Positions 8,651 to 64,000 of a DNA stretch of 64,000 nucleotides are shown here, one piece after another. Every line of letters starts with the position of its first letter. Position 1 is the stretch's first letter. The position numbers and the translations under genes were made by a program. The notes under the pieces are model-generated. The model was not told the DNA's origin. It worked only from the letters and a program-made list of their open reading frames with translations, and made no database searches. The stretch comes from Desulfurococcaceae archaeon (GTDB taxonomy: Archaea > Thermoproteota > Thermoprotei_A > Sulfolobales > Desulfurococcaceae), in the NCBI GenBank assembly GCA_038824035.1, contig JAWBBW010000001.1:14187-78186 (forward strand), written 5' to 3'.

Positions 8651-8653
8651 CAC

Positions 8654-34628: not shown

Positions 34629-37103
34629 TTACACTTGGGATTTATCTTTTTTAGAGAAATCAAGTATATTTTTCTTCGCGGATTCCGAGATTATCCTGAT
34701 CTCTGATCTAAACCCCCTCGTGGATATATCTGTCACTTGTTCTTGAACGTTCTTTGACCTTATAACCCCTCTTAGCACATCCTCAATGACTCTTCTATAT
34801 TCATCGAAATCCACATTCTCTATTAAACACTCCTCGTAAGAAATTATTGTCTCGTGGTTCCTCTGATCTAAGCGGAGACGTATCTTGCAATCGCCGGCTT
34901 CGATCAAGCTATCATCGTGTGTCACGATGATCACTTGTCCCTCCAATCTTCCTATCTCCCTTAAAACACTCTTCAATCTATCAACAAGCTCTCTGCTAAA
35001 ACCAGTAGTTGGCTCATCGAGTATGAGGACAGCTTTTTTCAACATCGGGGAATATTGTCTCACAGTAGCGTTCAGGGCCAATCTATATGCAAGGCTAATT
35101 GCTATGTCCTGTCCCCCGCTCGGAGATCTGAGGTCATATGTTCTCTCACCTATCCTGATCCTGGGCATTACCGAGAGATCGTCGCCTATCACCACCTCTA
35201 TTGGTTGATCGGGTATTAGCAATGCTAGGAAATTGTAGAAAAACCCCCTGAAAGTTTCCAACATGATCTTAGATATCTCTTTCTCAACTATATCAACCAC
35301 ATTATTGATCTTAGCTAGTATGTCCCTTAGCCTATGTAATTTCTTGGCCTGTTTCTCAAGGTTTTCAAGTGATTTTTCCAACTCCACGATGGATAAGAGT
35401 TTATTCTCAAGCACTTTGATATCGGCACTAATGCTATAATATTCCCTGGATAATCTCTCTATTTCCTTTCTAATAACATTGATCTCCTGATTCACTTTTT
35501 CCAATTCTCCCTCGATCTCCACTTTAGATCTTTCAATGTCCTTTAACCTGTTCTCAACGCTTTTAAGGGATTCGAGTTCTTCCAACGCTTTCCTCAACTT
35601 ATCCAACATTACCTCGGCTTTATCGAGTTGTCCCTTTCTCTCTTTAAGCAAATTACTTCTCTTGCTTAATTCCCATATTTCGTCCTCAACGACATTTCTC
35701 CTTTTCCTGAGATCATTGATACGTCCTCTCAACGACTCGATCTCATGTTGTACATCTTTCAGCGCCTTCGAAAGGCTTTCATATTCATTGTCAAATTGTT
35801 TTAACCTAGTTTCAATATCTTCCATCTCCCTTGTTATCTCGTTTATCAAGGCATATCCATGTTCATGTGTGATTGGTTGTTTACAGACGGGGCATTTGCC
35901 GATGGCTATTAGCTCGTTGACCTCCTTGAGGTCTCTTTTCTTCTCATCTAGGCGTGCTGACCAGTAACTTATATCTCTTTGCTTACTCATCAACATATCT
36001 CTAAACCGTTTCTCCTCTCTCTCTTTTTCAGAGAGCGTTGATTCCAATTCGTTCATTTCCTTATCAATCATCGCCAATTCTTCTCTCAACTTGGTTATTT
36101 TAGACTCGATCTCCTGTTCCTCTCTGTTGATCCTCTCTCTCAGATTACTCAGATCATGTGGGCTCAGTTCAACGAGATCACCCAGTTTGCTCAATTCTTT
36201 TTTAATCCTTTCGATCTCTTCGTTTATTTCAACTCTCTTCTGGATAAGTGCTTTTAACTCTGATTCCATATCCCTGTATTTATCGCGATCGCTTTCGAGT
36301 TCCTCCCTTCTATTTTCTAATTCAGATAGTCTGTTCTCCAGTGCGATTATCTCGTTTTTTATCGAGGACAATTTTTTCTCTAACTCGTTTTTCTCTCTGT
36401 TGATCTTTTCTTTATCCAATTGTATTAATTGTTGTCGATAAATTTCTATCTTGTTATCGATACTGCTGATCTCCTTGTTCAACGCCTTGCTGATCAATTT
36501 TTCATAATTCCTTCTGAACTCTCTATATCTCTCTAATCCCAGCGCTCTCTCGATGATCTCTCTTCTTTTCTCGCTATCCAACATGAGTATTTCGTGTACA
36601 TTGAACTGGGGGGCGTAGAGTACATTGGTGAATAACAGTGGTTTTCCTTTCTCTACTTCTCTTATTTTCAATATCTCCCGTATTCTCCTATCCATCTCCT
36701 CCTTGGAACTGTATGGTTCATATCTCTTCAATTTGATCTCTTCGCCCTCGATCTCATATATCTCTATCCTGCCTCCACGCGACTCTATCCTATCACCTAC
36801 TCGTACAATTGTTCTCTCGATTAGATATAACCTATCCGCCTGGATCAATAGTCTGACCTTTCCATAATTGCTCCCAGCTCTTAACAGATCTTCTCCAGTT
36901 GGATACGCGAATGCTTCGAATACCTCGTTCCCATGCCACGATCTGGGCACAAGCCCTAGTAAAGCGAAACTTATCGCCATCAGTATACTGGTCTTGCCAC
37001 TACCACTTGCTCCATGAATGGCTATAACGCCCTTGTTGGGGAACACTATTACGCTATTTCTATAGCTCCTGATGTTCTCTAGGTATATGCCCAGGATCCT
37101 CAT
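34629..37103 (-). CDS. rad50: DNA double-strand break repair ATPase Rad50
   Basis: Walker A GASGSGKTS, long coiled coil with zinc hook CPVC, signature SGGQDIAISLAYRLAL, Walker B LILDEPT. Confidence 0.9.
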   Translation of the reverse strand: MRILGIYLENIRSYRNSVIVFPNKGVIAIHGASGSGKTSILMAISFALLGLVPRSWHGNEVFEAFAYPTGEDLLRAGSNYGKVRLLIQADRLYLIERTIVRVGDRIESRGGRIEIYEIEGEEIKLKRYEPYSSKEEMDRRIREILKIREVEKGKPLLFTNVLYAPQFNVHEILMLDSEKRREIIERALGLERYREFRRNYEKLISKALNKEISSIDNKIEIYRQQLIQLDKEKINREKNELEKKLSSIKNEIIALENRLSELENRREELESDRDKYRDMESELKALIQKRVEINEEIERIKKELSKLGDLVELSPHDLSNLRERINREEQEIESKITKLREELAMIDKEMNELESTLSEKEREEKRFRDMLMSKQRDISYWSARLDEKKRDLKEVNELIAIGKCPVCKQPITHEHGYALINEITREMEDIETRLKQFDNEYESLSKALKDVQHEIESLRGRINDLRKRRNVVEDEIWELSKRSNLLKERKGQLDKAEVMLDKLRKALEELESLKSVENRLKDIERSKVEIEGELEKVNQEINVIRKEIERLSREYYSISADIKVLENKLLSIVELEKSLENLEKQAKKLHRLRDILAKINNVVDIVEKEISKIMLETFRGFFYNFLALLIPDQPIEVVIGDDLSVMPRIRIGERTYDLRSPSGGQDIAISLAYRLALNATVRQYSPMLKKAVLILDEPTTGFSRELVDRLKSVLREIGRLEGQVIIVTHDDSLIEAGDCKIRLRLDQRNHETIISYEECLIENVDFDEYRRVIEDVLRGVIRSKNVQEQVTDISTRGFRSEIRIISESAKKNILDFSKKDKSQV

Positions 37104-39086
37104 TTAACCCGCCATGTCCATTAGTAATTTGGCCACATCTCCCTTTATCTTGCCTAGCTCCTTTCTCCTATTCCTAATGGCCATGATGTTGTCTGCGTAC
37201 TCGAACCAAGCAGGTATATATATTGGCACAGGCTCCTTGATCGGCAGATCAGGTGTATATAAATAGCCCTCTCTATCGCCGAGATATGGTAGCGTCTCCA
37301 CAGGTATACCGATGTCCCTGAAGAACTCTATATCACTCCTACTCCTCGTTCTCAACACTATGTATGTGTTGAAATTAGCCAGTAATTGCTTCTCGATAAT
37401 AGTGGCTAATTGTGTTATGGCAATTAAGCCTATTTTGAATTTCCTGCCCTCTCTCGCTATCCTCGCGAACACGTTATATGGGCTTGTAACTTTATCAGGG
37501 CTGAGGTATAAAGGCGCCTCTTCCGAGACTATGCCTATTGTGAAACTACGTGAAGACTCCTCCACTCCTTTTTCAAGTCTGTTTTCAAATAATCTCCTAG
37601 TTATCGTCAAGTTGGCTAGGTCTGCTTGCACGTTGTCTATCCTGGAGACATCTATTACAACGATATCCCCTTTCTCAACCCATTCAATAACGCTATCTAT
37701 GCTGAGCCCAGTGTAACCCGGTATTTCCAATTCCTCGCATATAACTTTCCATTGATAATTGGCTGTACTCACATTGAATGCCTTTCCCAATTTCTCTACG
37801 AATAATGAGAGGAAACAAGCCAGGCCATCAGGGTCTTTCAATAAAGGAGATGTCTTAACAACACTCAACGAGTCGTCTATGATATATATGGGTTTATTAC
37901 TACTTGTTCTCTCAAGTTTTATTCTCCAATTCAGTTTCAGTAAAACAAGTCTCCTTAAAACCCTTGAGATCCTCGCATCTATCCCCCTATCAACGAGGAT
38001 CCTGTGAAGTCCTTTTTTATAATCCCTTTGTTCGCCTACGCCCTCATACCTGATCACGTTATCGACTAGTATAGGTATTAATGCTATGGCGTTGGCTGTG
38101 GCCTCATCATTCCGTGTTATGAATAAACCAGCGTTTTTAATCTTCCCATCTTTCTCTAGTTCTTTAATCACGTGGATCACTATTGAGAGAAATTCATCCA
38201 TTTCGCTGATCCTCTCGAGGCTGATGTCGCCAAGCCCGGCAAAGTCCTGGAAAAGCACACTACTAGCATCTAGTGCTGTTTCATATAGCCTGAAACACCC
38301 ATGTTCACTAGCCATTATATCCCTGTCCCTCCTGGCTGTGACAAACCTAATAGATTTTATCTCAACATCGTGTATGTATTGATTCGAGCCTATGGCCTCC
38401 AGTAAATAACCTATGAAACTATCCGGCGTAAACCCCGCTTCTGGGACGTATTCTCCGTGCCTATCTATGATCAGCCATCCCATCTTCTCGGTGGACTCTA
38501 ATGCGTATTTGAGCAAGATCCCTTGAATTCCACTGGTTTTACCAGAACCCGTTTGCCCAGCAACGAGCACATGTTTGCTCAATATACGTGGAAGGTCTAG
38601 CCTAAATGTTGCATCGGGGAAATGCTTCTCCCTTGCCAACTCCTTGTTATGAGCAACACCAGATCTCAGTATCGCCACTGCCACACCTTTTTCACTAGTT
38701 CTTGTCCCTATCTCTCTCATTATATTTTTCGCGTCATCATCGCTATTCGTCAATAGATATATAGGTGTCATAAAGGATGGGGGCTTAGAGGCCTTTGTGA
38801 GCACTTTCTCGTTCGCGTTAACGGGGATCAACTCTAGGAATAGGCTTGCCTGGATCACGACATTTCTCTGGAATTTCATTAACTCTGGTTGTTGAAGAGG
38901 TTCTATGCTTCGAACGCTTATCGGTAAAAAGCCCTCGAAGCCAACTACATTCATTATAATCACTCTGCCATTTCTCTCAATTGTATACAGTAGATCGCCA
39001 TAGGATGGGGTATAATTGTCATTGGTGACAGCGATAAGCGCTCTATCGTTTGACCATCCATATGTTAACCCTATTCTAACAGGCAT
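37104..39086 (-). CDS. herA: HerA DNA helicase/translocase (operon copy)
   Basis: Walker A VAGQTGSGKTS and an N-terminal HAS-barrel-like region. Located inside the mre11/rad50 operon. Confidence 0.85.
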   Translation of the reverse strand: MPVRIGLTYGWSNDRALIAVTNDNYTPSYGDLLYTIERNGRVIIMNVVGFEGFLPISVRSIEPLQQPELMKFQRNVVIQASLFLELIPVNANEKVLTKASKPPSFMTPIYLLTNSDDDAKNIMREIGTRTSEKGVAVAILRSGVAHNKELAREKHFPDATFRLDLPRILSKHVLVAGQTGSGKTSGIQGILLKYALESTEKMGWLIIDRHGEYVPEAGFTPDSFIGYLLEAIGSNQYIHDVEIKSIRFVTARRDRDIMASEHGCFRLYETALDASSVLFQDFAGLGDISLERISEMDEFLSIVIHVIKELEKDGKIKNAGLFITRNDEATANAIALIPILVDNVIRYEGVGEQRDYKKGLHRILVDRGIDARISRVLRRLVLLKLNWRIKLERTSSNKPIYIIDDSLSVVKTSPLLKDPDGLACFLSLFVEKLGKAFNVSTANYQWKVICEELEIPGYTGLSIDSVIEWVEKGDIVVIDVSRIDNVQADLANLTITRRLFENRLEKGVEESSRSFTIGIVSEEAPLYLSPDKVTSPYNVFARIAREGRKFKIGLIAITQLATIIEKQLLANFNTYIVLRTRSRSDIEFFRDIGIPVETLPYLGDREGYLYTPDLPIKEPVPIYIPAWFEYADNIMAIRNRRKELGKIKGDVAKLLMDMAG

Positions 39087-39090
39087 GTGC

Positions 39091-40386
39091 TCACCTGTAG
39101 CCTATTCTCATTCTCTGAGTACTCATAAACATATATTCGAGTGGATGCCCTATAGTGCCCGTGATCTCCCTTATCACTTGTACAAAGCTCTCGGATATAT
39201 CTCTAAAGGTCTCGTTTTTCAATCTAACCATTTCATCGACCTCCATGAATCCATGAGGTAATTGGCCGATCACCGGTGTTCTATACAAGAAGATCTCCTG
39301 TGAAACCCTTGGTATGGTCTTGCCTAGTTCTGATGCCAATTTACTATTAAACACCACCATCCCCCTTTCAATGTTGATCAGAGGTCTTTGGATATATTTC
39401 TCCAGGTGGAAAACGGTATTTTCGCTAGTCGTGATCGGGAACCTGGTAACCCATATATCGTTTCTTGGGAATATCAATTTATTGAACAAATTAATGGTAT
39501 CCATGGCCATGTCGACGCCGTACTTAATCCTTATGTCCTCTATCACCGAGGAGGCTTTTTCCACTGATTCCTCATCTACGTAGCTATAGAGACCTAGATC
39601 TACTCTTCCCACGTTACCATAGAATATCTCCCTGGCACGGGCGAATGAGGTGAACTTGGTTGTCTTGGTGAGACCCATTACATCATTTAGTTCATTTATC
39701 AAGACATCTCTATCTATCCCGGTTATTTTCTCAAGGACGTTTAATCCATCAAATTTAAAGGATTTCAGAGATCTCTTCACGCTAAACCATCTGATCAATG
39801 TGCCGTCTATAACGCATATAGGCTTTTTCAGCAAAAACCTCTTCAATTTAATCCCATAAGCGATCTCCATGAGCCCCTCCACATAGTTCACGAATTTCTT
39901 GAAATTACTCATTAATTTCAAGCCAGATCCCGATGTCTGTTTATTCAACATAGCCGTTATCTCCTCAGAGATCCTGGGCGCGGACTCGGGCCTGATTAAT
40001 ACCGGGTTTTCATCGACAGGTATAAATCTGATTACGAATTCTGAGCCCTTCTCCCCTTGAACCCATCTCCCATATACGAAGTAGGTCTCATAGGGAGGCA
40101 TATCACATATTTCATGAACATATCTCACACGTCCTTCCTCATCTCTCACACATCCACCAATGTTTATGATATATAGCACTGAGACATCTGTCTCCACGTT
40201 GTTAAAGCCAGCATCTACAAATACTATGGGGGCCTCTTGTTCGCGTGGAACGAGTGGTGAGACCTTGTAAAACGCCCTATAGGCCTCACTTCTCAGCCTT
40301 ATTAATTCGCTTTCACGGGATTTCACGAAGTCCTCTCTCATCTTGATCGCCACTTCTCTAATTATTTCAAGGATCTTCGAGCTCAT
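39091..40386 (-). CDS. nurA: NurA 5'-3' nuclease (operon copy)
   Basis: NurA-like acidic motifs (VFVDAGFN, CVIDGTLIRW). Sits between mre11 and herA; its start overlaps the mre11 stop as ATGA. Confidence 0.7.
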   Translation of the reverse strand: MSSKILEIIREVAIKMREDFVKSRESELIRLRSEAYRAFYKVSPLVPREQEAPIVFVDAGFNNVETDVSVLYIINIGGCVRDEEGRVRYVHEICDMPPYETYFVYGRWVQGEKGSEFVIRFIPVDENPVLIRPESAPRISEEITAMLNKQTSGSGLKLMSNFKKFVNYVEGLMEIAYGIKLKRFLLKKPICVIDGTLIRWFSVKRSLKSFKFDGLNVLEKITGIDRDVLINELNDVMGLTKTTKFTSFARAREIFYGNVGRVDLGLYSYVDEESVEKASSVIEDIRIKYGVDMAMDTINLFNKLIFPRNDIWVTRFPITTSENTVFHLEKYIQRPLINIERGMVVFNSKLASELGKTIPRVSQEIFLYRTPVIGQLPHGFMEVDEMVRLKNETFRDISESFVQVIREITGTIGHPLEYMFMSTQRMRIGYR

Positions 40387-41666
40387 TTCTCGATCACCTC
40401 TTTCATCTCCCTCAAGATCTCGTCTAGTAGTCTTCTATAATATGTTTCATCGGGTTCACTGGATTTGGGCAAACTCAGTTGGTCAATCAACCACATCGCC
40501 TTATCCACCATGCTCGAAAGACCTTGCCTAGACAATATCTCTTTCACGATCTTCTTCTCTATTTCAAATATGGAATCGCCTGTTACATGTACGTCGATTA
40601 CAGGGCCCTCGCCTAGAAGGGCGCTAGCTATACCCATAGATCTACCCGACCTAACCCTGATCATCACCTTGTACCTGTTCTCCATCTCCGCGATTTCCCG
40701 GTGAAGTCTGGCATCGGGTAGTTGTATACTCCTGGCTCTTACTATAAACACCTTGTATTCATTGCTCATGTCCTTGACCTTGCTATTTACTTCGATCAAA
40801 AGGTCGTTGACATTGATATGGCTAGACTCTATCAGAGCTACTTTTGGCACGTTATCAAGTTCCAAGGCCTTAACCAAGGGCGGTTCATGTGAGAGATCAA
40901 TGAGGAGCACTCTACGTGATATACCTTTTTTAGCTAATTCATATGTCTCCTCCATGTCGTTTAAATCCATTCCTAAAGGCGCCCCTGAATATGCTATATT
41001 GCTCTTAAAGGCCTTCTCCAAGGGGATAGGCATATGTATGTGCCCGAGCGCAACGTATTTCGTGTTACTCGGTAACTTAGCCAATAAGTCATCGCCCTTG
41101 ATACTCAGCTTGCCATATCTATGATGATATGATGCGGGGTCGAAACCGGAGAACTTCACGCTCATATGTGCCACGACCACTGTGTCATGTCTATCCCCTT
41201 TACCATTAATTCCCTTGAACCTCACTTTACCCTGATCAATGTATTCGATCTCCTTGCCCCCCCTGAACCCGGGGATTCCATAGTAAACGACATTGTCCAC
41301 AAGTAGTGGCAATGAAATCATCCACCCCGATAACTCCTCGTACCTTAATAGCCGAATTAACCCGGATTCGTCAAGTAATTCCAATATCCCTTTTCTATAC
41401 CTCGAGTTATCATGATTACCGGGCACGACCACTATTTCTTTCCCATTATCTCTGAGGTTTCTCAAGATCTTTATTGAACGTATTAAGAGGTCATAATTGT
41501 CCAACACGGCTTTGTCAAACATGTCCCCGGCTACTACGAGTGTTCTCGCATCGAGACCCATGACTTTCTCCGCTATTTCTTCTAAAACATCTATATAAGC
41601 CTTGCCGAGAAATGGATGCACTGACATCGCGCAACCAATGTGTAAATCACTTGTATGTATGAGCAT
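40383..41666 (-). CDS. mre11: Mre11 nuclease
   Basis: Phosphoesterase motifs TSDLHIG, AGDMFD, PGNHD, GHIH. Confidence 0.9.
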   Translation of the reverse strand: MLIHTSDLHIGCAMSVHPFLGKAYIDVLEEIAEKVMGLDARTLVVAGDMFDKAVLDNYDLLIRSIKILRNLRDNGKEIVVVPGNHDNSRYRKGILELLDESGLIRLLRYEELSGWMISLPLLVDNVVYYGIPGFRGGKEIEYIDQGKVRFKGINGKGDRHDTVVVAHMSVKFSGFDPASYHHRYGKLSIKGDDLLAKLPSNTKYVALGHIHMPIPLEKAFKSNIAYSGAPLGMDLNDMEETYELAKKGISRRVLLIDLSHEPPLVKALELDNVPKVALIESSHINVNDLLIEVNSKVKDMSNEYKVFIVRARSIQLPDARLHREIAEMENRYKVMIRVRSGRSMGIASALLGEGPVIDVHVTGDSIFEIEKKIVKEILSRQGLSSMVDKAMWLIDQLSLPKSSEPDETYYRRLLDEILREMKEVIEK

Positions 41667-54568: not shown

Positions 54569-54928
54569 CTAACTAGAACGCTCTATAAGTTTCTCTAATT
54601 TGAACTCCAATGTGTTTTCCCCTCTATGAGCCCTGTAGAGGGCATATAACACCGGTTCATCAGATTTTTGCTCATAGATCCCGATTACTAGTAGTTCTTC
54701 GCAAAACCTCTCATTGGGGAATAATTCACATCCCCTGTTCTCTAAGAAAGACGCTTCTAGGCCATATGGCTCAAGTGTCTCTGACAACATTATAGACAAC
54801 CTTTCTTTTAACATGTCGAGTAATAGGTCCATGAATTCTCTATAGGCCCATCCACTGCCCCCTTCAACCATGATCCTGATGTTCAACAATCTCCTAAGGA
54901 CCGAAATGTCAATGCTCACCGCGCTCAC
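54569..54928 (-). CDS. hypothetical protein (119 aa)
   Basis: Overlaps the 3' end of the NUDIX gene by 20 nt (same strand). GTG start. Confidence 0.4.
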   Translation of the reverse strand: MSAVSIDISVLRRLLNIRIMVEGGSGWAYREFMDLLLDMLKERLSIMLSETLEPYGLEASFLENRGCELFPNERFCEELLVIGIYEQKSDEPVLYALYRAHRGENTLEFKLEKLIERSS

Positions 54929-55502
54929 CGTGTTTGCTCAAGTATAGCAATATGAGGAGGGCTGTTTTCATATCGCGTATCTCGTTTTCGATCACCATTC
55001 GATATGCCTCCTTTATGTTCACTTTGAACGTCCTTATTATCTCGTATTTCTCGGGCCTGGCCCCCTTGTACACTAAGTCCTTGGCATAGAAGAAATGCAA
55101 TAACTCGGTGCTGTAACCTGGGGCCGGCGTGAACTCCCCTATTTTAACTAATTTACCTGGGTAATAACCTGTCTCCTCTAAGAGCTCTCGATACGCTGCC
55201 TCCTCTGGTGATTCACCGCTATCTATGACTCCGGCTGGTGCCTCGATTATGAAGTCGTTTAATGGCGCCCTGAATTGCCTTATCAAGAGCACTTCTTCCT
55301 CACTTATAAACGGCAAGACCACGACTGCTTGTGGAAACACGACTATATCTCTTTCAAATATACCGTTATCCGCTTTTTCATATAATCTCCTGACCACGTT
55401 GAATCTCAACCCCTTGTACAGTGTCTTTTCCTCGATCAACCTAGGTGAATCCAAGCTAATCGCCTCGCTAATAAATAGGAAAGTCCAAGTATAATAACTC
55501 AT
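54909..55502 (-). CDS. NUDIX hydrolase (ADP-ribose pyrophosphatase-like)
   Basis: Nudix box GVIDSGESPEEAAYRELLEETGY. Start moved to ATG 55502, because the ORF-track extension is antisense to the neighbouring gene. Confidence 0.75.
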   Translation of the reverse strand: MSYYTWTFLFISEAISLDSPRLIEEKTLYKGLRFNVVRRLYEKADNGIFERDIVVFPQAVVVLPFISEEEVLLIRQFRAPLNDFIIEAPAGVIDSGESPEEAAYRELLEETGYYPGKLVKIGEFTPAPGYSTELLHFFYAKDLVYKGARPEKYEIIRTFKVNIKEAYRMVIENEIRDMKTALLILLYLSKHGERGEH

Positions 55503-56379
55503 GGTGAGGGCTTTGCCCAGGTTCTGGTTTGGGCCAGCTGGGAAGCCTATAACGATGAAAACAGGTGATATATTGAAAGCACCGGCTTTTCTCAGAGAAC
55601 TTGGATTAAACGCCATGGAGTATGAGGCGGTGAGAGGTGTGAATATAAAAGAGGACAAGGCTAGGGCATTTGGAGCAGAGGCCCGTGTAAACGGCATAAA
55701 GCTCAGTCTACACGCGCCTTATTTCATAAATATGGCAGGTAAAAAGGACGTCGTGGAGGGGAGTATTAAGAGGCTCAAGGACTCAGTAGATGCTGCCTAT
55801 TGGATGGAGGCATATGTGGTGGTTTTCCACCCGGGTTATTACAGGGATGCGCCATCCAAGAAAGATGCTGTTAAAAAAGTGATAGAAAACCTCAAACCTG
55901 TAATTGAGCATAGGGACCAGATCGGTGCAAGAAACGTGTGGCTCGGCCCGGAGACAACTGGTAAGACAAGCCAAGTCGGCAGTCTCGAAGAGGTGATTTT
56001 GATATCGAGTTCCCTTGAAAGGGTTAGACCTGTGATCGACTTTGCCCATCTCTACGCGAGAAGTGGGGGCAGGTTCATCACGAAACCCGGGGACGTGGGG
56101 TTGGTCATAGACATGGTGGAAAAAGAGCTAGGGTCAGAGGTGTTGAAACCATTGCACATACACTTCTCCAAGATAGAGTATGGTAAAGGAGGTGAGAGAG
56201 AACACCATACACTGGGGGAGGAGGGTTTTGGACCCGATTTCAGAATTATATGCAGGGTTCTCTGCGAAAGAGGAGTGGACTCGGTTATAATTAGTGAGAG
56301 CCCTGTGTTAGAACAGGATGCTATAGTTATGATGGGTTATTGCAAGGAAATATGTGGTGAGAATTGTATTGTTGAATAA
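55501..56379 (+). CDS. AP endonuclease family 2 / endonuclease IV-like TIM-barrel protein
   Basis: N-terminal FGPAG, LSLHAPYFINM, VVFHPGYY; several conserved His/Glu positions. Confidence 0.75.
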   Translation: MVRALPRFWFGPAGKPITMKTGDILKAPAFLRELGLNAMEYEAVRGVNIKEDKARAFGAEARVNGIKLSLHAPYFINMAGKKDVVEGSIKRLKDSVDAAYWMEAYVVVFHPGYYRDAPSKKDAVKKVIENLKPVIEHRDQIGARNVWLGPETTGKTSQVGSLEEVILISSSLERVRPVIDFAHLYARSGGRFITKPGDVGLVIDMVEKELGSEVLKPLHIHFSKIEYGKGGEREHHTLGEEGFGPDFRIICRVLCERGVDSVIISESPVLEQDAIVMMGYCKEICGENCIVE

Positions 56380-56947
56380 GCTAAGGAATAAGCTAGATGC
56401 CTTCATGGGCAAATTGGCGTTGAAAATTGCAGGGTCATGTATACCCGTAGATCCAAACGCGATCACCATTTCCTCGTTGATAATACTACTCGTGGGATTG
56501 GCTTTATTGCTCTTGACTGGTGCATCAGTTGTTTTCTCACTATTCATATTGATATCTGGATTCATGGATGTACTGGATGGGGCTATTGCGCGGGCAATGA
56601 ACAAGGTGTCTATGAAAGGGGCTTTCCTAGACTCCACTATAGATAAGGTCAATGAGATTATAATAGCTATGGCACTCCTATACCTGGGATTTGACCCCAT
56701 AGCGGTCTTGCTTTTCCTAGCACTATCACTGTTGATCAGCTATATACGGGCTAGGGCGGAGGCACTTAAACTCGTGATCAGCGGTATCGGGTTAATGGAG
56801 AGAGCTGAGAGGTTAATAGGGATCGTGGCGATACTGGTGATCAACACGTTTAATCACGATGTAGCTTCATTGATGCTTTATGTGCTCCTCGTGTTAATGG
56901 CCTTCACGGTCATAGAGAGAATGGTGTTTGTCCTTAAAAGGATCTAG
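56354..56947 (+). CDS. CDP-alcohol phosphatidyltransferase (archaetidyl-inositol/serine-phosphate synthase class)
   Basis: Exact family motif D-G-x2-A-R-x8-G-x3-D-x3-D within DVLDGAIARAMNKVSMKGAFLDSTIDKVNE. Polytopic membrane protein. Confidence 0.8.
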   Translation: MVRIVLLNKLRNKLDAFMGKLALKIAGSCIPVDPNAITISSLIILLVGLALLLLTGASVVFSLFILISGFMDVLDGAIARAMNKVSMKGAFLDSTIDKVNEIIIAMALLYLGFDPIAVLLFLALSLLISYIRARAEALKLVISGIGLMERAERLIGIVAILVINTFNHDVASLMLYVLLVLMAFTVIERMVFVLKRI

Positions 56948-58998
56948 CCAGTCAACGCTGACAAGTCGTAATGGCCTATAAGGGGTAATGGCGTCTTAAA
57001 CGTGACATAGCCTAGTCTTAATACATGGCTTTTCATAACACCGACTCTATCACCAGCCCTTGTCACAAAATCCCTGTATTCACTTGGCAAATCCAGTTGT
57101 GCTAGATGCGTTTTATCAGTTCTCAGAACTATCTTGGTGTTTGTCAATTGAAGTATTATGTCATGGACATCCTTTGGGCTATGTGTACTGAAAACCAATC
57201 CCAGTCTTCGAGACCTGCCAAGCCTGGCTATTCTATCGATCATGCTGGACACATTCTCTATGTAATCCTCTATACCCGTTTTAGATGGGAAAAACCTATG
57301 TGCCTCATCTATGAATATTATGACTGGTTGTGTCTCAAATCTAAGCCTACTCTGTAATAATTTCCACTCAAATATCTTGTTCAATACCCTGAACGCGACT
57401 ATGCTAATGGTTTTCTCGGGATCGGCTTGAGAGTGTATTTGCAGATATTCAAGGTCAGCTATTATAGGGTAGCCATTGAATAGCTCGAAATGTCTTTCCA
57501 ATATTCTATCCAATGGTGGTTCATGGAGGTATTTATCCTCGCCATGCCCTTTTATGTACACATCGAATATGCCAGTATCTATTATCGCTGCGATCTGCCT
57601 GATCATGTTTTCCAAAGTGCTCTTATGAATTGCCATCTCCTTTATTATTTCAACTACGTATTCCTTGTTAGGGTCCAGTATCAGTCCTCTCGTTTTTTCG
57701 CGTTTATCTTCTATCCTGGCCCTGGACTCTCTCAATGCCTCGTATAAGTCGTAGACAGTCTCTATGTATGCGTTTTTCTCCCTGAGCGCGTGTAGAAGCC
57801 TGAGTAAGGCGTCCTTGGCCTGCCTGGTGAAATAAGGATTCAACGAAATGAACTCCTTTGGCTTAAAATCAGTGAATCTGAGCGCGTATGGGACTATGTA
57901 ATATGTGACCTCATCCTCCACGTTATTGCCATAGTCTATCGAGACGACTATTTTGACGAATCTCAAAGGAGCATCAGGGGCTGGCTCCTCAACGACATCT
58001 ATCTCTTTTAATTCATATTTCCAGTTGAAACGGGACATTATTGGTGATAATACGGAGTCGAGGTAATTTACTGCTATTAATTTCAACAATTTAGCCCATG
58101 TACTACATGTCTCTACATACTCCGATATGGCACTCCTCGTTATTGGAAGTATTATTACGACCCCTCTGACCCCCTTAGATTGATCCAAGGTCTTCATGGC
58201 CAGTTTGACTTCTTCCTCGTGAGCCGTGTTCTTCAAGAGCCATAGTGGTTTAAGTGGTAATGTCACGTAATCCTTGTTGGGGTCGATAGTTACTAATGAA
58301 ATCCTTTTCTCCTCTACTCCATGACCAGATATCGCTGAATAAATCATGTTTTTCAACAAAGTCGTTTTCCCACTACCAGTAGTGCCTAGGACCAATACAT
58401 GTTGATAAAAAGCCCTGAGAGGTAGGAAAAGCGGTGCATTGGCATCGAAAACCGGTATATCGCCGGTGGTGACATATCCTAGGAAAACACCTTTTTCAGG
58501 TAAACCCAGGACTTTTTGTATGACATTTGGATCCCTTAACTTTATAACAGGGCTTTGAGGCTCTATCACATAGTTCGCCGCTATTACTTCATCGGTGTTT
58601 AAATCATATGCTAACAATGGCTTGGCCTTGATCCTAGTTTTTGTCAATAGACCAGAGACCTCTGATAATGGCAAGGACATGTACATATCAGGTAGGTTTA
58701 GTTCAGCCAAGATATCTCTTCGCTCAACACTCACGACCTTGACGCTGACGAGGTTAAGGGTCTTTATATCTATGACACCAAGTATACTGCCCGACTGGGC
58801 CAGGTTCTGGAAATTCGAGAAATAGATCACGGGGTCTATGTCGAATATTACGTAACCACCTTCCTCATCGATCAATGATGGACTGGTCCTAGATACAAAG
58901 CCAACTACTTCACCTAACTTATTCGCCAATTCCATTGATTTACTAGCCCTTTCTCTCAGGGATTTCAAGACATCGTTAGAGGACAAGTGTTCCACCAT
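56944..58998 (-). CDS. HerA-like hexameric ATPase, second copy
   Basis: Walker A LGTTGSGKTTLLKNM, Walker B IIFIDEAHRFFP, N-terminal barrel-like region. 684 aa. Confidence 0.8.
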   Translation of the reverse strand: MVEHLSSNDVLKSLRERASKSMELANKLGEVVGFVSRTSPSLIDEEGGYVIFDIDPVIYFSNFQNLAQSGSILGVIDIKTLNLVSVKVVSVERRDILAELNLPDMYMSLPLSEVSGLLTKTRIKAKPLLAYDLNTDEVIAANYVIEPQSPVIKLRDPNVIQKVLGLPEKGVFLGYVTTGDIPVFDANAPLFLPLRAFYQHVLVLGTTGSGKTTLLKNMIYSAISGHGVEEKRISLVTIDPNKDYVTLPLKPLWLLKNTAHEEEVKLAMKTLDQSKGVRGVVIILPITRSAISEYVETCSTWAKLLKLIAVNYLDSVLSPIMSRFNWKYELKEIDVVEEPAPDAPLRFVKIVVSIDYGNNVEDEVTYYIVPYALRFTDFKPKEFISLNPYFTRQAKDALLRLLHALREKNAYIETVYDLYEALRESRARIEDKREKTRGLILDPNKEYVVEIIKEMAIHKSTLENMIRQIAAIIDTGIFDVYIKGHGEDKYLHEPPLDRILERHFELFNGYPIIADLEYLQIHSQADPEKTISIVAFRVLNKIFEWKLLQSRLRFETQPVIIFIDEAHRFFPSKTGIEDYIENVSSMIDRIARLGRSRRLGLVFSTHSPKDVHDIILQLTNTKIVLRTDKTHLAQLDLPSEYRDFVTRAGDRVGVMKSHVLRLGYVTFKTPLPLIGHYDLSALTG

Positions 58999-59027
58999 GT
59001 TGTTTTAATAGGGTATTTAAAAGTTAT

Positions 59028-60200
59028 TTATGCAATGCTGATGTATTGCATCGTGGATTCGCGGGATAAGCCGGCGAGGTATAATATATACGTCATTATG
59101 GCATTTGTCAATTTCTTAACCCTTTGATCCACTGCTATTATGCTTAAGGGGAGCAATGTACCCGCGTTGACGCTATCATAAGCTATAACCCCTATTACAA
59201 AGTCCTCGTCTATTCCCTTGTCTAAAACCTCGATCCTGTAAAACACATAATTACCCATGTTCATTGCTGGGAACAGCCTTCTGGGCATAGCTATATACCA
59301 GATCACCCTATTCACGCCATATTCATGCCTATGCTTTATCAAGAAAGGCCCTATCACCAATGGCTCATATCTGGCTTCATTTCTCTGCATTATATACGAG
59401 GCTATGTATGCCTCGTCGTTTATTCTGCCACTGGCTAATCCCATCGGATCTAGTGTAGACAACAAGTAGCTTCTATGAAGCCTCTTGACCACGCCGATCA
59501 CTAGTACTCGGTTTTCATGTAGCTTGTCTATCAACATTGCTCTTTCCTTGTTCACTTTTCTAAGGCTATTCATGTACAAGTGTTGCTTTTCATAGTCAGA
59601 ACCGGGGAATTCCAATGGCAATGGATATATCAATGGACCATCAATCAATAGAACTGAGCTAGCTTCTCCTCTTTTCTCCAAAAATATTTTCAAAAGGCTA
59701 TTCTCGATCATCAGGCGAAGTTCTGTGAGCAAGATATTCCTATTATAACTAGGCGTGTATACCACGCCTTCTGGGTTTGAGCAAATGACATGGCTCGTTT
59801 TCTCACGTAGTTTTGAAATATCATAGCCCTCCACTTCTGGTATGATCACAATATGTCCGTGAGGGGGCTCTTCTAGCCCTAGAATGGAATTTATGCTAGG
59901 GATATCCATGCTCGCCCCAGTGAAGCGATTAAGCACGCTACCGGCCCCTATGCCTATGAAAACATATGGTGTTTCAAGCACCCTTGAACTGCTATCAAGT
60001 GCGTATAATTGATCTGTGAAGATGTCGCTAAACTGTCTATTAATCGTCTTTACGTATTTCTCATCCATGATGTCCACTTGTTGCGGGTTTGTGTATTCGA
60101 CGAGCTCTACGTTGATATTCGCGGCCTCATCTCTCTTCAACCTATGTCCTTCGATCACTCTATTCCGGAGATCCTCCATGATCTCTGCTATTGTTTTCAA
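59028..60200 (-). CDS. NurA-domain nuclease-like protein, second copy
   Basis: YALDSSSRVLE and LLIDGPLIYP resemble NurA catalytic motifs. Immediately upstream of the HerA-like gene. TTG start (alternative ATG 60179). Confidence 0.6.
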   Translation of the reverse strand: MKTIAEIMEDLRNRVIEGHRLKRDEAANINVELVEYTNPQQVDIMDEKYVKTINRQFSDIFTDQLYALDSSSRVLETPYVFIGIGAGSVLNRFTGASMDIPSINSILGLEEPPHGHIVIIPEVEGYDISKLREKTSHVICSNPEGVVYTPSYNRNILLTELRLMIENSLLKIFLEKRGEASSVLLIDGPLIYPLPLEFPGSDYEKQHLYMNSLRKVNKERAMLIDKLHENRVLVIGVVKRLHRSYLLSTLDPMGLASGRINDEAYIASYIMQRNEARYEPLVIGPFLIKHRHEYGVNRVIWYIAMPRRLFPAMNMGNYVFYRIEVLDKGIDEDFVIGVIAYDSVNAGTLLPLSIIAVDQRVKKLTNAIMTYILYLAGLSRESTMQYISIA

Positions 60201-60275
60201 GATTAACCCCTATCCACTTAGACAACTCTTAATTAGCCTACTAAATCTCTATACAATTTCAGGGGTGCTTATAAC

Positions 60276-61304
60276 ATGTCTACAAATGAGAAAAAGGTGT
60301 TGAAGGTATTTGTAACCGGTGATTGGGACGCAGATGGCGTGATCGCGACTGCGCTGATAGTGTATGGGCAGGAGAAAATGGGTAAATACCCTTTCGAAGC
60401 CAATGCAATCGTCACCAAGGTGCCATTAGACCCTGATAGGACCAAGTACTTCTTATCCGATTTCAGCGGAGGTTATGATGTGGTCGTTTTCCTGGACATA
60501 CCGTATAACGAAATATTGGGCAATATCATGAAGATGTTGAAAGAACACTTCGGTGTAAGTAAAATAGTGTTCATAGACCACCACATAACCAGTTTACAGA
60601 GGATAGATGAGGTCAAAACACACGCCGACGAGGTGCTAGTTGATTATAAAAAACCGACCTCCATGCTGGTATACGAAGAGTTGGTCAAAAGAGGTATCAC
60701 TGTTCACCAGAGATTGAGGAGCTTTGTCGAAGTGGTTAAATACATGGATATGGGTAAAAGGGTTCCTAAGGAATACATGAAGTTATTCGAGATAACGAAA
60801 ATGTTCTCCAAGGTGCTCACGGCGATCAGAGATGTCGAATTATGGGTCAAGATTGTGGATTGGCTCGCCTCCCCGACGCCTTTGCCAGTACCATTAGACG
60901 ACGCGGTGTGGAATAGGGTTAAAAAAGTGATCGAGGAACGGGATAAGGAGGTGGCTGAAAAAGCCATGGAGCTCGCAATAGGGGCTGTGAGAATAGGTGA
61001 TTTCAGGTTTGTGGATGCCAGGAATGCGTGGAAAAAACGAGGCGTCACGGCATTGGCATCTAAGTTGTCGACCATATTGAAAGCACCCGTGGCATTATTG
61101 GCTGGTACAAACCGAGATTATTCGTTATTGATATTGAAGGCCTCTTATGGCAGGGCTTATAGGATAGCGAAATATCTAGTAGGAGAAGGTGTGGCCTTGG
61201 ATATAGCCGGGCACCCTAATCTAGCTATTGTGAGGCTTCCAAAGGATATAAATAGGCAAGAGCTAATAGAGCACTTGTACAAGGCTGTTTACTACACATC
61301 CTGA
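60276..61304 (+). CDS. DHH-family phosphoesterase (RecJ/Cdc45-like or NrnA-like)
   Basis: Motifs GDWDADGV (DxD..DG) and FIDHHIT (DHH) are intact. Confidence 0.7.
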   Translation: MSTNEKKVLKVFVTGDWDADGVIATALIVYGQEKMGKYPFEANAIVTKVPLDPDRTKYFLSDFSGGYDVVVFLDIPYNEILGNIMKMLKEHFGVSKIVFIDHHITSLQRIDEVKTHADEVLVDYKKPTSMLVYEELVKRGITVHQRLRSFVEVVKYMDMGKRVPKEYMKLFEITKMFSKVLTAIRDVELWVKIVDWLASPTPLPVPLDDAVWNRVKKVIEERDKEVAEKAMELAIGAVRIGDFRFVDARNAWKKRGVTALASKLSTILKAPVALLAGTNRDYSLLILKASYGRAYRIAKYLVGEGVALDIAGHPNLAIVRLPKDINRQELIEHLYKAVYYTS

Positions 61305-61319
61305 TAAACAACCATATAA

Positions 61320-62396
61320 ATGTCCGAGGAGTGGGACATGGCCAAGATATTGCTTGTGGAGAAGGCCAGCGAAATGCATAAACCCATGGATAACCACCCA
61401 GAGAACCATAAACGCATTGCAAGGATCGTGAGTTTGCTCCGTGAAAGGGGGGTCAGTTATAGCAATGTGCCACTCGTTGACCTAGACCAGTCGTTGATGC
61501 TTGCATATGAAATACACGCGAAGGGATATATGGATTATTTGCTAAATGTCTCGAAAAATGCGCCCGTCTTGATAGATGAGGACACATATATATCAGAGGA
61601 TAGTGTTGTCCTGGCTCTGAGCACCTTATATGTATCATATGAAACAGCTACATATATAAATGACGTGGTATTCTTGATCTCGAGACCTCCTGGCCATCAC
61701 GCTGGTAGAAATGGCAAAGCCATGAACGCCCCTACTCAGGGTTTCTGCCTGTTAAACAATGCTGCGGCGGCTGTGTATGGTTTTAGAGAAAGGGGGTTCA
61801 AGGACATAGCTATATTGGATTTCGATGCTCACCATGGGAATGGTACAATGGAGTTTTTCTACAAAGAGAGGGTTCTCCAAGTGGATTTACACCAAGACCC
61901 TAACACTCTTTATCCATATACGGGGTTCCCACATGAGATCGGTGAGGGCGCGGGACACGGTTTCAAGGCGAACTTAATATTGTTCCCAGGCATAGGCGAT
62001 GACGTGTTCACAACGATATTACGTGACGTGATCGCGCTACTAAAGGAGTATTCACCAGATGCAGTGGTTGTATCAGCTGGTTTCGATGGATTTAGGAATG
62101 ATGGGTTGGCTGATTTATCGCTCACAGAGATATCTTATAACAAACTAGGATATTACCTGGCCAAGCTCGGCGCCCCAGTGTTCATAGTGTTAGAGGGGGG
62201 TTACGGTATAGGTCTTGAGAAAGGACTTTTATCTTTTATCAAAGGCCTTAACGGCGTGGAGGAGGCACATGGCGAATACATGTACTCGGCTAGGTCCATA
62301 TATAGGGAGAATATTAAAATAGCGGGGACTGTTTTGAGAAAAGTGTCGGAGAAGGTATTAGGATATGACATATATGGGCGTCGAGAAAGAGATTAA
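61320..62396 (+). CDS. histone deacetylase-superfamily Zn amidohydrolase (AcuC / acetylpolyamine amidohydrolase-like)
   Basis: RPPGHHAGRN, DFDAHHGNGT, EGGYG. Confidence 0.9.
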   Translation: MSEEWDMAKILLVEKASEMHKPMDNHPENHKRIARIVSLLRERGVSYSNVPLVDLDQSLMLAYEIHAKGYMDYLLNVSKNAPVLIDEDTYISEDSVVLALSTLYVSYETATYINDVVFLISRPPGHHAGRNGKAMNAPTQGFCLLNNAAAAVYGFRERGFKDIAILDFDAHHGNGTMEFFYKERVLQVDLHQDPNTLYPYTGFPHEIGEGAGHGFKANLILFPGIGDDVFTTILRDVIALLKEYSPDAVVVSAGFDGFRNDGLADLSLTEISYNKLGYYLAKLGAPVFIVLEGGYGIGLEKGLLSFIKGLNGVEEAHGEYMYSARSIYRENIKIAGTVLRKVSEKVLGYDIYGRRERD

Positions 62397-62922
62397 ACTA
62401 GAGATCCCAGGTGATCCTGGTCAAGTAGAGGAATTATTGAGGACCAATGGCTTTAAATACGTGGATGAGTGCTTAGAAGTGGATACATACCATATCCATC
62501 CATGCAGAGACCTAGCGACCTCTGATGAAGCCTTCAGATTTAGGAGACACAGGTGTAATGTGAGCGAGAAATACATGGTGACATATAAGGGCCCGCGTCT
62601 ATCCAGAGATGATGTTAAATCAAGACCTGAATTAGAGGCAGAGATGGATGAGAAGACATGGTATGTGCTGAGGGCCATCATGGAGAGGTTGGGGTTCAAG
62701 CCCTTGATCAGCATTACAAAGAGGAGAAAGATCTACGTTACCGAGGGCCTTAAAGCGTATTTGGACGAGTTAATCGGGGTCGGGTTTTTCCTCGAAATAG
62801 AGACCATTGGAGATAGAGGTATTGATAAGCTTCGAGAACTCCTCGTATTGTTGAAGCCTTTGACCAGGATTATACATGATACCTACTTAGAGATATGTCT
62901 TAAAACCAATAAATGTATATGA
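62365..62922 (+). CDS. CYTH-domain protein (class IV adenylate cyclase / triphosphate tunnel metalloenzyme)
   Basis: N-terminal ExExK (VEKEIKLEI) and a C-terminal acidic strand (FFLEIE). Overlaps the HDAC-like gene by 23-32 nt depending on which start is used. Confidence 0.75.
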   Translation: MTYMGVEKEIKLEIPGDPGQVEELLRTNGFKYVDECLEVDTYHIHPCRDLATSDEAFRFRRHRCNVSEKYMVTYKGPRLSRDDVKSRPELEAEMDEKTWYVLRAIMERLGFKPLISITKRRKIYVTEGLKAYLDELIGVGFFLEIETIGDRGIDKLRELLVLLKPLTRIIHDTYLEICLKTNKCI

Positions 62923-63573
62923 ATGACTCCACTGAATATTGAAAACATGGTGATAGCCCTGAGCCAGGGGGTAAAAATAGTTGAACTTATTTATAGAAAG
63001 CTTGTAGATGAGCAAATAAGTAGAATGGATGAGATCAGGGATCCACATATCGTGTATGTAACAGACCTTGTCACATGTACACATAAATTCCACCTACGTA
63101 AATCATACCCAGAGTTGACAATTATCTTTGAGCCATCAGCTGTCCTGGGAACTCTCTTACACAAGGGATTAGAGGCGTTTCTTAGCGAGAAAGGCTTCGA
63201 GAGCGAGGTCGACATAGAGTCGAGGATCGTGGTTGATGGCAATGAGTACTTGTTGAAAGGGAGAGTCGATGCATTGAATAAGGGGGAGAGAGTTGTGGTT
63301 GAGATAAAGACAGCGAGAATTGCCAAAAATCTCCCGCGAGAACACCATATCAAGCAATTGAACATATATCTAAACATGATCGGCTATGACCGCGGGGTAT
63401 TAATATATTTCACTCCTAATAGAATAGTTGAACACCCTGTGTCAAGGGAATTCGTGGATCTCGAGCACTTAGTGAGAGAAGTGGTGTATGATACCAGGCA
63501 TCCTAGATATGAATGGGAATGCAATTACTGTGTATTCAGAAAACTCTGCATATATGTAACCACATCGAAATGA
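62923..63573 (+). CDS. cas4: stand-alone Cas4-like PD-(D/E)xK nuclease with 4-Cys cluster
   Basis: N-terminal Cys (YVTDLVTCTHKF), GRVDAL, VVVEIKT, the QxxxY element (KQLNIY) and C-terminal CNYCVFRKLC (C-x2-C-x5-C). Its ATG abuts the CYTH stop. Confidence 0.75.
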   Translation: MTPLNIENMVIALSQGVKIVELIYRKLVDEQISRMDEIRDPHIVYVTDLVTCTHKFHLRKSYPELTIIFEPSAVLGTLLHKGLEAFLSEKGFESEVDIESRIVVDGNEYLLKGRVDALNKGERVVVEIKTARIAKNLPREHHIKQLNIYLNMIGYDRGVLIYFTPNRIVEHPVSREFVDLEHLVREVVYDTRHPRYEWECNYCVFRKLCIYVTTSK

Positions 63574-63639
63574 TCCGATAGCTTGATCTATTTAATCGTA
63601 GTTGTTAAATAACCCGGTATATATACATATATCCCAACG

Positions 63640-63689
63640 ATGATGAGCGCTCGGGTTGGCAGATCAGTGAAGATGGTTTTGAGTACTGA
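63640..63689 (+). ncRNA. box C/D sRNA (50 nt)
   Basis: ATGATGA-GCGCTCGGGTTGG-CAGA-TCA-GTGAAGA-TGGTTTTGAGTA-CTGA. C and D are perfect, C' has one mismatch, D' is CAGA, and the D spacer is exactly 12 nt. TTAAATAA (63605-63612) sits at about -26. Confidence 0.7.
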
Positions 63690-63805
63690 TAACAGAGTTA
63701 GGTTACGTGTTCAATATGTGGTCTCTTTGAAAAGTGGTTATAAGGGTGTTGTTTATCACAGATAACCATATTAAAAGAGGATACAAGCCAAGGTGATTAG
63801 TTTTT

Positions 63806-64000
63806 ATGCAGAGATTTGTATTCGGCATAGAGGATCTCGACAAGTTATTGGGAACAGCACTGGTTGAAAACACATTGATGGTCATAGCCGGGCATCCAGG
63901 TTCTGGGAAAACCTCGTTGGCATCTACTATTTGCTACAACAATGCGTTGATGGGTGTAAAATGCCTTTACATATCCTCACAGGAGGATCGGGACAAGCTA
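63806..64000 (+). CDS. KaiC/RadA-like RecA-superfamily ATPase, N-terminal part (3' end lies outside the window)
   Basis: My own translation gives MQRFVFGIEDLDKLLGTALVENTLMVIAGHPGSGKTSLASTICYNN..., with Walker A GHPGSGKTS. Open to the window edge and absent from the ORF track. Confidence 0.7.
   Translation, partial: MQRFVFGIEDLDKLLGTALVENTLMVIAGHPGSGKTSLASTICYNNALMGVKCLYISSQEDRDKL

Follow-up and report, generated by a model that had tools for sequence, protein, structure and literature searches.

The 64-kb window analysed here comes from a metagenome-assembled genome (MAG) of a Desulfurococcaceae archaeon, and identical proteins are encoded in GCA_038888535 and three sister assemblies. Towards its far end, a paralogous nurA-herA pair on the minus strand, here called nurA2 and herA2, is divergent from four plus-strand genes that encode a DHH phosphoesterase, a histone deacetylase (HDAC)-family protein, a CYTH protein and a Cas4-like nuclease (Table 1). 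An initial annotation of the window put these six genes forward as a candidate DNA-end-processing or nucleotide-signalling module. The six open reading frames (ORFs), their domains, their catalytic motifs and their spacings were all borne out by coordinates, Pfam and NCBIfam searches and motif reading; the proposed module was not. We consider it probable that two independent units lie side by side in a chromosomal block with family-wide conserved gene order. One is nurA2-herA2, which would be a stand-alone DNA-processing pair, and the other a compact four-gene operon of individually known enzyme types (DHH, Zn-dependent deacylase, CYTH triphosphatase and solo Cas4). The four-gene clustering and the divergent arrangement would then be lineage-specific and inherited, with no dedicated six-component system.

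Table 1. Features of the window referred to in the text (positions are those of the window).
Feature	Position	Strand	Assignment and basis
Mre11-Rad50 operon	34629-41666		Mre11, HerA and Rad50 recognisable
ORF between mre11 and herA	39091-40386	-	431 aa, NurA by position only
NUDIX gene	54909-55697	-	longest ORF
AP endonuclease gene	55501-56379	+	longest ORF
herA2	56944-58998	-	putative paralogous HerA-type hexameric DNA translocase ATPase, 684 aa
nurA2	59028-60200	-	paralogous NurA-family nuclease, 390 aa, TTG start; upstream partner of herA2
Divergent intergenic region, 75 bp	60201-60275	.	two back-to-back A/T-rich TATA-like elements
DHH/DHHA1 phosphoesterase, arCOG00425 (COG2404 oligoRNase clade)	60276-61304	+	motif blocks, AlphaFold2 model
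HDAC-family Zn-dependent deacylase, class II / acetylpolyamine amidohydrolase type	61320-62396	+	PF00850, solved relatives
CYTH / triphosphate tunnel metalloenzyme, SaTTM-like	62365-62922	+	PF01928, TIGR00318
Solo Cas4, predicted SSO0001-type 5'-3' single-stranded DNA exonuclease with Fe-S cluster	62923-63573	+	4IC1, TIGR00372 similarity
Probable box C/D small RNA	63636-63691	+	readable boxes, sub-threshold Rfam matches
KaiC/RadA-like ATPase, 5' part; variable neighbour outside the unit	63807-64000	+	PF06745 on full-length product (L001)

HerA2 matches the Pfam domains DUF87/HerA (1.5e-10), FtsK_SpoIIIE and HerA_C, and its Walker A (GTTGSGKTT), Walker B (IDEAH) and ARLGR motifs are invariant in 23 homologues of 32-72% identity. 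When its AlphaFold2 (AF2) model (pLDDT 85, pTM 0.86) was compared with the PDB by Foldseek, the top 50 matches were all HerA chains. The best was 9X1M (8e-21), with 7WRX, 8ZIS and 4D2I included, and the matches span the T. kodakarensis HerA-NurA, the D. radiodurans and S. solfataricus HerA proteins, and the bacterial DUF4297-HerA and Sir2-HerA. HerA2 therefore combines a P-loop core bearing an arginine finger, an adjoining NurA gene and, as modelled, the HAS-barrel/RecA-like/helical-insertion fold that define a HerA. It scores far below the NCBIfam HerA equivalogs (36.6 bits against a cut-off of 970 for NF040819, and 26.8 against 800 for NF040937), and its BLASTP similarity to the other HerA of the window is confined to the P-loop and Walker B regions. 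NurA2 matches PF09376 with 36.6 bits (cut-off 21; 4.5e-9) over profile positions 2-253 of 254, and its residues D69, E160 and D187, together with D342/D358, are invariant in 19 homologues. The PF09376 match, the HerA domains and the HerA fold of the model thus uphold the earlier claim of a second NurA-HerA pair.

To follow the six genes across genomes, 24 loci were collected from species-representative genomes with a NurA2 profile (an 8-sequence subset of the 19-sequence alignment) and 80 from metagenomes with a DHH profile, and gene tables of distant homologues of HerA2 and Cas4 were added. When dereplicated at 95% DNA identity, these loci formed 84 groups, 42 at family level (DHH or HerA2 at least 50% identical to that of the window) and 42 distant. 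The pairing of nurA2 with herA2 is obligate: nurA2 lies directly upstream of herA2 in all 36 family-level groups and in 6 of 7 distant groups, and HerA2 identity across the family is 57-72%. The pair is distributed over Desulfurococcaceae, Acidilobaceae and other Thermoprotei MAGs. In the Acidilobaceae Stetteria and Caldisphaera, as in several Thermoprotei MAGs, nurA and herA overlap by 8-40 nt and the pair stands alone among varied housekeeping genes. A mobile-element or plasmid-borne defence origin of HerA2 was considered and rejected, as no phage or plasmid counterpart was found in the collections searched: HerA2 had no similarity in the phage collections, and the plasmid matches covered the Walker B region only. 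As to the surroundings of the pair, a PCNA gene lies 2-8 kb downstream in both Acidilobaceae loci (L029:19485-20145, L030:13138-13914), the Stetteria locus also has genes for PolB and an XPD-type helicase close by, and a PHP protein is encoded just upstream in L036.

In its two-protein make-up and gene pairing, NurA2-HerA2 is like the HerA-NurA end-resection complexes of S. solfataricus (4D2I), T. kodakarensis (9X1L/9X1M) and D. radiodurans (7F6D). With the archaeal complex HerA2 shares the fold and the Walker and Arg motifs, and NurA2 the Pfam NurA domain and the D/E/D set. Unlike that complex, nurA2-herA2 is placed outside the mre11-rad50 operon, which has a separate HerA. HerA2 is also about 180 residues longer than the S. 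solfataricus HerA and, according to the model, carries an additional insertion, beta-rich and helical, between its two Walker motifs. By analogy with these systems we infer that the two proteins form a complex, and from the same comparison its substrate and cellular role: duplex DNA would be threaded by a HerA2 hexamer, at the expense of ATP, into a NurA2 dimer seated on the N-terminal face of the hexamer, and NurA2 would digest the threaded strands, resulting in DNA-end processing or DNA degradation. In the literature searched, no experimental characterisation of the NurA2-HerA2 lineage was found, nor any function assigned since 2012 to the extra crenarchaeal NurA-HerA pairs.

The operon with the other HerA lies about 18 kb from nurA2-herA2 and had been described as a canonical mre11-nurA-herA-rad50 operon. 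Its Mre11, HerA and Rad50 are recognisable, all far below the NCBIfam equivalog cut-offs (58.5 bits for HerA). Searches of Pfam, NCBIfam, PADLOC and PDB sequences detected no similarity of the ORF between mre11 and herA to NurA or to anything else, and hhalign against the NurA2 family detected none either. The description thus holds for three of the genes; the fourth is a NurA by position only, and NurA2 alone can be recognised as a NurA in the window.

On the plus strand, 15 nt separate the DHH and HDAC genes, HDAC and CYTH overlap by 32 nt (23 nt if CYTH is read from its second Met), and CYTH and Cas4 abut with 0 nt between them. Because these ORFs overlap or abut and the gaps are too small for promoters, the four genes probably form a single transcript in the source genome. 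In the divergent gap, a TATA-like element can be read about 25-30 nt upstream of each start codon, in a leaderless-type layout: TAATTAAG on the minus strand ahead of the nurA2 TTG, and CTATACAAT ahead of the DHH ATG. Such paired elements are the ordinary layout of back-to-back archaeal promoters, and the gap would be expected to carry promoter function for both directions.

The first product of this operon, the DHH protein, passes PF01368 narrowly (30.5 bits). All 25 cluster representatives compared keep its motifs DWDxDG (DWDADG in the window), D74, DHH and GH unchanged, and the family is small, with 32 clusters among 1.84 billion representatives. PDB sequence searches with the single sequence and with a profile returned nothing meaningful. 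An AF2 model (pLDDT 93), computed from an alignment of the homologues found in the representative-sequence search, has both the DHH and the DHHA1 domain visible. Its closest Foldseek matches are of the RecJ clade (PF0399, bacterial RecJ, RecJ-Cdc45 and GAN), followed by GdpP, PggH and NrnA. These high RecJ/GAN/Cdc45 ranks, together with the restriction to Desulfurococcales, led us to consider an orthologue of Cdc45/RecJ, the essential replicative protein that the initial annotation had named as a possible identity. The conserved blocks published for arCOG00425, those of D. kamchatkensis (gi 218884295; 'RVFVAGD--WDADGVVAAALIVYSQ...FLDIPY...IVFIDHHIT...RLRSFVEVVKYMDMGK') and S. marinus (gi 126466085), match the window DHH and its Staphylothermus orthologues (PMC3307487, supplement). 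This arCOG is listed for Desulfurococcales only, as a 'predicted phosphohydrolase' within the COG2404 oligoRNase clade, and the same genomes encode the Cdc45 orthologue separately, as arCOG00432, whose inactivated domain lacks the DHH motif; the clade assignment is a prediction, with no archaeal member biochemically characterised (Makarova et al. 2012, PMC3307487). The Cdc45/RecJ identity is ruled out by the presence of both arCOG00425 and arCOG00432 blocks in the same genomes and by the intact active motifs, and on its motif blocks the window DHH is a member of arCOG00425 and not the Cdc45 orthologue. It shares with the arCOG00425/NrnB-type oligoRNase clade these blocks and a DHH-central-DHHA1 architecture, although its model appears at least as near to RecJ, GAN and PF0399 as to NrnA, GdpP and PggH. 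Its predicted activity is the degradation of oligonucleotides or nanoRNA.

Distant DHH homologues adjoin genes for DNA ligase, thermosome/Lhr, IleRS, Trm5 or TFS/AspRS; S15, S3Ae and Pcc1, the genes that flank the Cdc45 orthologue, were all absent from the DHH neighbours examined in 23 distant loci (about 30 neighbours Pfam-scanned), a further ground on which the Cdc45/RecJ identity was rejected. Distant arCOG00425 genes (L084, L087 and L089, about 8000-10850; L093, L096, L097 and L100) lie directly upstream of an ATP-dependent DNA ligase in one lineage and in a DHH-thermosome-Lhr helicase row in another. The ligase and Lhr neighbours might be a sign that the role of this DHH family is related to DNA.

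The HDAC-family protein matches PF00850 (Hist_deacetyl) with 203 bits (6e-60), and its best solved relatives are HDAC6 (5e-45) and an acetylpolyamine amidohydrolase (2e-37). With the catalytic GHH (His-His), DxH and D (Asp/His/Asp) and Tyr (GGY) residues legible in its translation, it is classed as a deacylase of the class II / acetylpolyamine-amidohydrolase type. The CYTH protein matches PF01928 (65 bits, 7e-18), and 8 orthologues all retain its ExExK motif (EKEIKLE in the window) and other acidic residues. Its solved relatives are PH1819 (5e-22) and Saci_0718, or SaTTM (9e-17), both of which have the same ExExK and acidic tunnel residues. It also passes TIGR00318, 'class IV adenylate cyclase', with 104 bits against a cut-off of 57.95, which is at odds with the triphosphatase-only activity of SaTTM: this enzyme hydrolyses tripolyphosphate (PPPi), ATP and other nucleoside triphosphates and forms no cyclic AMP (PMC8233210). 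Since SaTTM is the closest characterised relative, a cyclase or cyclic-nucleotide role is unlikely, the 'adenylate cyclase' label is probably wrong for this gene, and a SaTTM-like triphosphatase activity is predicted. The suggestion that the CYTH and DHH enzymes make and degrade signalling nucleotides is thereby weakened, the DHH protein belonging to a predicted oligoRNase clade.

The Cas4-like protein scores 69.4 bits against TIGR00372 (cut-off 65) and matches SSO0001 (PDB 4IC1) over residues 19-209 (E 8e-40), with four Cys and the RecB-type motifs D...ExK and QxxxY. With no CRISPR array in the window and no cas1 or cas2 neighbours, it falls into the solo-Cas4 class, whose members are vertically inherited and of unexplained function (Hudaiberdiev et al. 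2017, PMC5704561). It has in common with SSO0001 and this class the four Cys, the RecB motifs and the position outside CRISPR-cas loci, and is predicted to be an SSO0001-type 5'-3' single-stranded DNA exonuclease. The literature search found no paper that links solo Cas4 with CYTH.

The linkage of the six genes is not specific to one strain, as they are syntenic in related genomes. Across the family-level groups, DHH adjoins NurA2 in 36 of 37, HDAC adjoins DHH in 30 of 31, CYTH adjoins HDAC in 27 of 29, and Cas4 adjoins CYTH in all 25. However, the unrelated genes on the herA2 flank are kept just as faithfully (HerA2-CDP-alcohol phosphatidyltransferase, 29/31; CDP-alcohol phosphatidyltransferase-AP endonuclease, 27/27; AP endonuclease-NUDIX, 25/26), and so are those on the other flank, namely SAM-hydroxide adenosyltransferase, a hypothetical protein and aldehyde:ferredoxin oxidoreductase. 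At least 15 genes are therefore collinear across the family, and adjacency here is uninformative on function. In the distant groups, DHH adjoins neither NurA2 (0/15) nor HDAC (0/15), NurA2 does not adjoin DHH (0/6), Cas4 does not adjoin CYTH (0/4) and HerA2 does not adjoin the CDP-alcohol transferase (0/6). NurA2-HerA2 is the only evolutionarily persistent unit of the region, and nurA2-herA2 is most likely a stand-alone operon of two genes, inherited vertically and distinct from the HerA linked to Mre11-Rad50. As only this pairing lasts, and the four ordinary enzymes merely adjoin in one family, the locus does not constitute a new six-gene system. The initial annotation had taken the tight packing as an argument for both co-transcription and functional coupling; the former is very likely for the four plus-strand genes, but the latter does not follow from a synteny no stronger than that of unrelated flanks. 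A paralogous end-resection pathway, its other suggestion, is the most reasonable account of NurA2-HerA2 alone, though not of all six genes.

We regard as distinctly improbable the reading in which the six genes make up a lineage-specific Desulfurococcaceae module co-regulated from the divergent promoter, with NurA2-HerA2 unwinding and resecting DNA, Cas4 trimming 5' single strands, DHH clearing oligonucleotides, and CYTH and HDAC in a supply or regulatory role. Such a module would account for the DHH-NurA2 adjacency and the compact spacing, for the retention of catalytic motifs in all six proteins, and for a set that includes three nuclease- or phosphoesterase-family proteins among its six and a DNA motor in HerA2. 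Yet the flanking genes are as syntenic, the adjacencies tested other than NurA2-HerA2 are lost outside the family, and it is not obvious what an HDAC and a PPPi triphosphatase would do in resection. The set also comes apart within the family. In L038 (L038:7345-9020), which has the most similar DHH (74%), 71 bp lie between the CDP-alcohol transferase gene and a downstream DHH-HDAC pair of the same orientation, and nurA2-herA2 is cleanly missing from its usual site, the place examined. L053 (L053:49-2075) is alike, with the CDP-alcohol transferase followed by DHH-HDAC and no pair at the site. HDAC is missing in L015, L026 and L077, and extra genes stand between DHH and HDAC in L025, L064, L070 and L073.

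Several observations nevertheless weigh against reading the locus as two independent units. At family level the six-gene arrangement is very stable and compact, and the divergent gap, 64-121 bp in most members, would permit shared regulation. The NurA2 side is itself less secure in one respect: PDB sequence searches, with the single sequence and with a profile, recovered no solved NurA. In L026, CYTH and Cas4 are still adjacent after a local inversion. The gene set partly recurs at L091:7992-15635, where DHH (35%), Cas4 and HDAC lie within 7.5 kb: Cas4 (41%) is 2 kb downstream of DHH on the same strand, after an ORF without assignment and a DUF1152 gene, and HDAC (39%), on the other strand, lies at a distance of 5.5 kb. 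The ORF between DHH and Cas4 was considered as a divergent CYTH and rejected; it is not a CYTH protein. Finally, in Pyrofollis japonicus (Pyrodictiaceae; L032:3673-9335, AP028634.1) an orthologous Cas4 of 50% identity is in an apparent operon with a NurA, in the order Cas4, PHP phosphoesterase and a short NurA of a third type (315 aa); a gene for an Lhr-type helicase is divergent from this operon. This link between Cas4 and a NurA paralogue could reflect a functional affinity of solo Cas4 with NurA-type nucleases, and with L026 and L091 it keeps a weak version of the module idea alive.

The same observations bear on the possibility that the four plus-strand genes alone form a unit for 5'-end and oligonucleotide turnover, in which CYTH would remove the 5' triphosphate or PPPi, Cas4 would digest 5'-3' and DHH would degrade the short products. 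The overlapping and abutting ORFs imply one transcript, the order is kept in 25-30 family-level groups, CYTH and Cas4 stay together through the L026 rearrangement, DHH-HDAC persists without the NurA-HerA pair in L038, and DHH, Cas4 and HDAC come near one another again in L091. Against this, outside the family DHH-HDAC (0/15) and Cas4-CYTH (0/4) are both lost, and the scheme offers no task for HDAC, which some lineages can do without. Moreover, compact archaeal genomes often group functionally unrelated genes in operons. We hold this four-gene unit to be unlikely, and prefer two units of which the second is an operon of individually known enzymes.

Extra NurA-HerA pairs are of a known kind in Crenarchaeota, as two studies attest. 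Pyrobaculum has at least three such pairs, one of them linked to CRISPR and csm6 (Bernick et al. 2012, PMC3396285), and the PADLOC models named 'Type III coevolved' derive from clusters 57 (HerA) and 58 (NurA), found beside type III CRISPR-Cas modules (Shah et al. 2018, PMC6546367). Like NurA2-HerA2, these paralogous or type III-associated pairs are extra to the repair operon and inherited vertically as pairs (PMC3396285, PMC6546367). HerA2 and NurA2 score best against the hidden Markov models built from these two clusters: HerA2 reaches 153 bits with 'HerA, Type III coevolved' over nearly its full length, compared with 47 bits for the other HerA of the window, and NurA2 reaches 39 bits with 'NurA, Type III coevolved'. 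NurA2-HerA2 is nearer to the type III CRISPR-linked clusters than to the Mre11-Rad50-linked HerA of the window.

This kinship raises the question of whether NurA2-HerA2 might be a defence or CRISPR-accessory effector, related to the nurA-csm6-herA type III clusters but uncoupled from CRISPR, with DHH or CYTH handling signalling nucleotides. Besides the profile scores, the CRISPR-linked paralogue documented in Thermoproteales (PMC3396285) and the partnership of bacterial HerA with defence effectors, seen in the Sir2-HerA and DUF4297-HerA Foldseek matches, would be in keeping with such a role. However, in agreement with the initial annotation, which saw no CRISPR array or other cas gene nearby, the 64-kb window contains no CRISPR array, and Pfam detects no Cas domain within about 10 kb besides that of the Cas4-like gene. 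Apart from solo Cas4, no Pfam Cas, CARF or Csm6 domain appears in the gene tables of 12 loci (L001-L004 of the source genome and eight distant HerA2 loci; loci other than these were screened solely by tblastn with the window proteins), and, unlike in the type III-associated pairs, no csm6 or CARF gene lies between or beside NurA2 and HerA2 in them. The neighbours are housekeeping genes and form no defence island; the fixed chromosomal position and the level of HerA2 identity are unlike those of fast-moving defence genes; no copies turned up in the phage and plasmid collections searched; and SaTTM, the relative of the CYTH protein, forms no cyclic nucleotide. We accordingly give an effector role very little credence, and retain the view of NurA2-HerA2 as a stand-alone DNA-processing pair.

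Of the remaining features, the small RNA announced downstream of Cas4 is plausible. Its C, D', C' and D boxes are legible, and a TATA-like element, TATATATACATATAT, lies about 25 nt upstream, but its full-length matches to Rfam sR3/sR5 (20.8-21.1 bits, E 0.002-0.005) are below the gathering scores of 40-41. A KaiC/RadA-like ATPase does follow, as had been reported; its product is 454 aa long in the source contig (L001:5034-6398). This gene is a variable insertion, found at 38-40% identity in a few relatives (L008, L012, L045/46), and in relatives that lack it SAM-hydroxide adenosyltransferase comes directly after Cas4. On the opposite side, the 5' ends of the longest NUDIX and AP endonuclease ORFs share about 200 nt. 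In the assembly annotation NUDIX is shorter (181 aa), so that with the true starts the two genes diverge across a small gap.

Taken together, our results leave the six-gene system without a footing, and it is therefore not worth pursuing as a new defence or signalling module. A bolder reading, which we hold to be a long shot, is that NurA2-HerA2 is a distinct and ancient crenarchaeal DNA-processing machine, strongly conserved wherever it occurs, whose role is unlike Mre11-Rad50-coupled resection. It would perhaps be the cellular ancestor of the type III CRISPR-linked effectors, and in Desulfurococcaceae it would be co-regulated through the divergent promoter with a solo-Cas4/DHH/CYTH operon that finishes DNA degradation. 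If this were true, the long-unexplained solo Cas4 would have its first functional partner. The value that remains otherwise is threefold. The neighbouring DHH gene is settled, on its motif blocks, as arCOG00425 and not as a Cdc45 orthologue. For the CYTH gene, the name 'adenylate cyclase' suggested by TIGR00318 is probably mistaken. Above all, a second NurA-HerA lineage is now cleanly defined, one that is strongly conserved, paired and never mobile in the collections searched, and its kinship to the type III CRISPR-associated pairs could show the origin of those accessory effectors.

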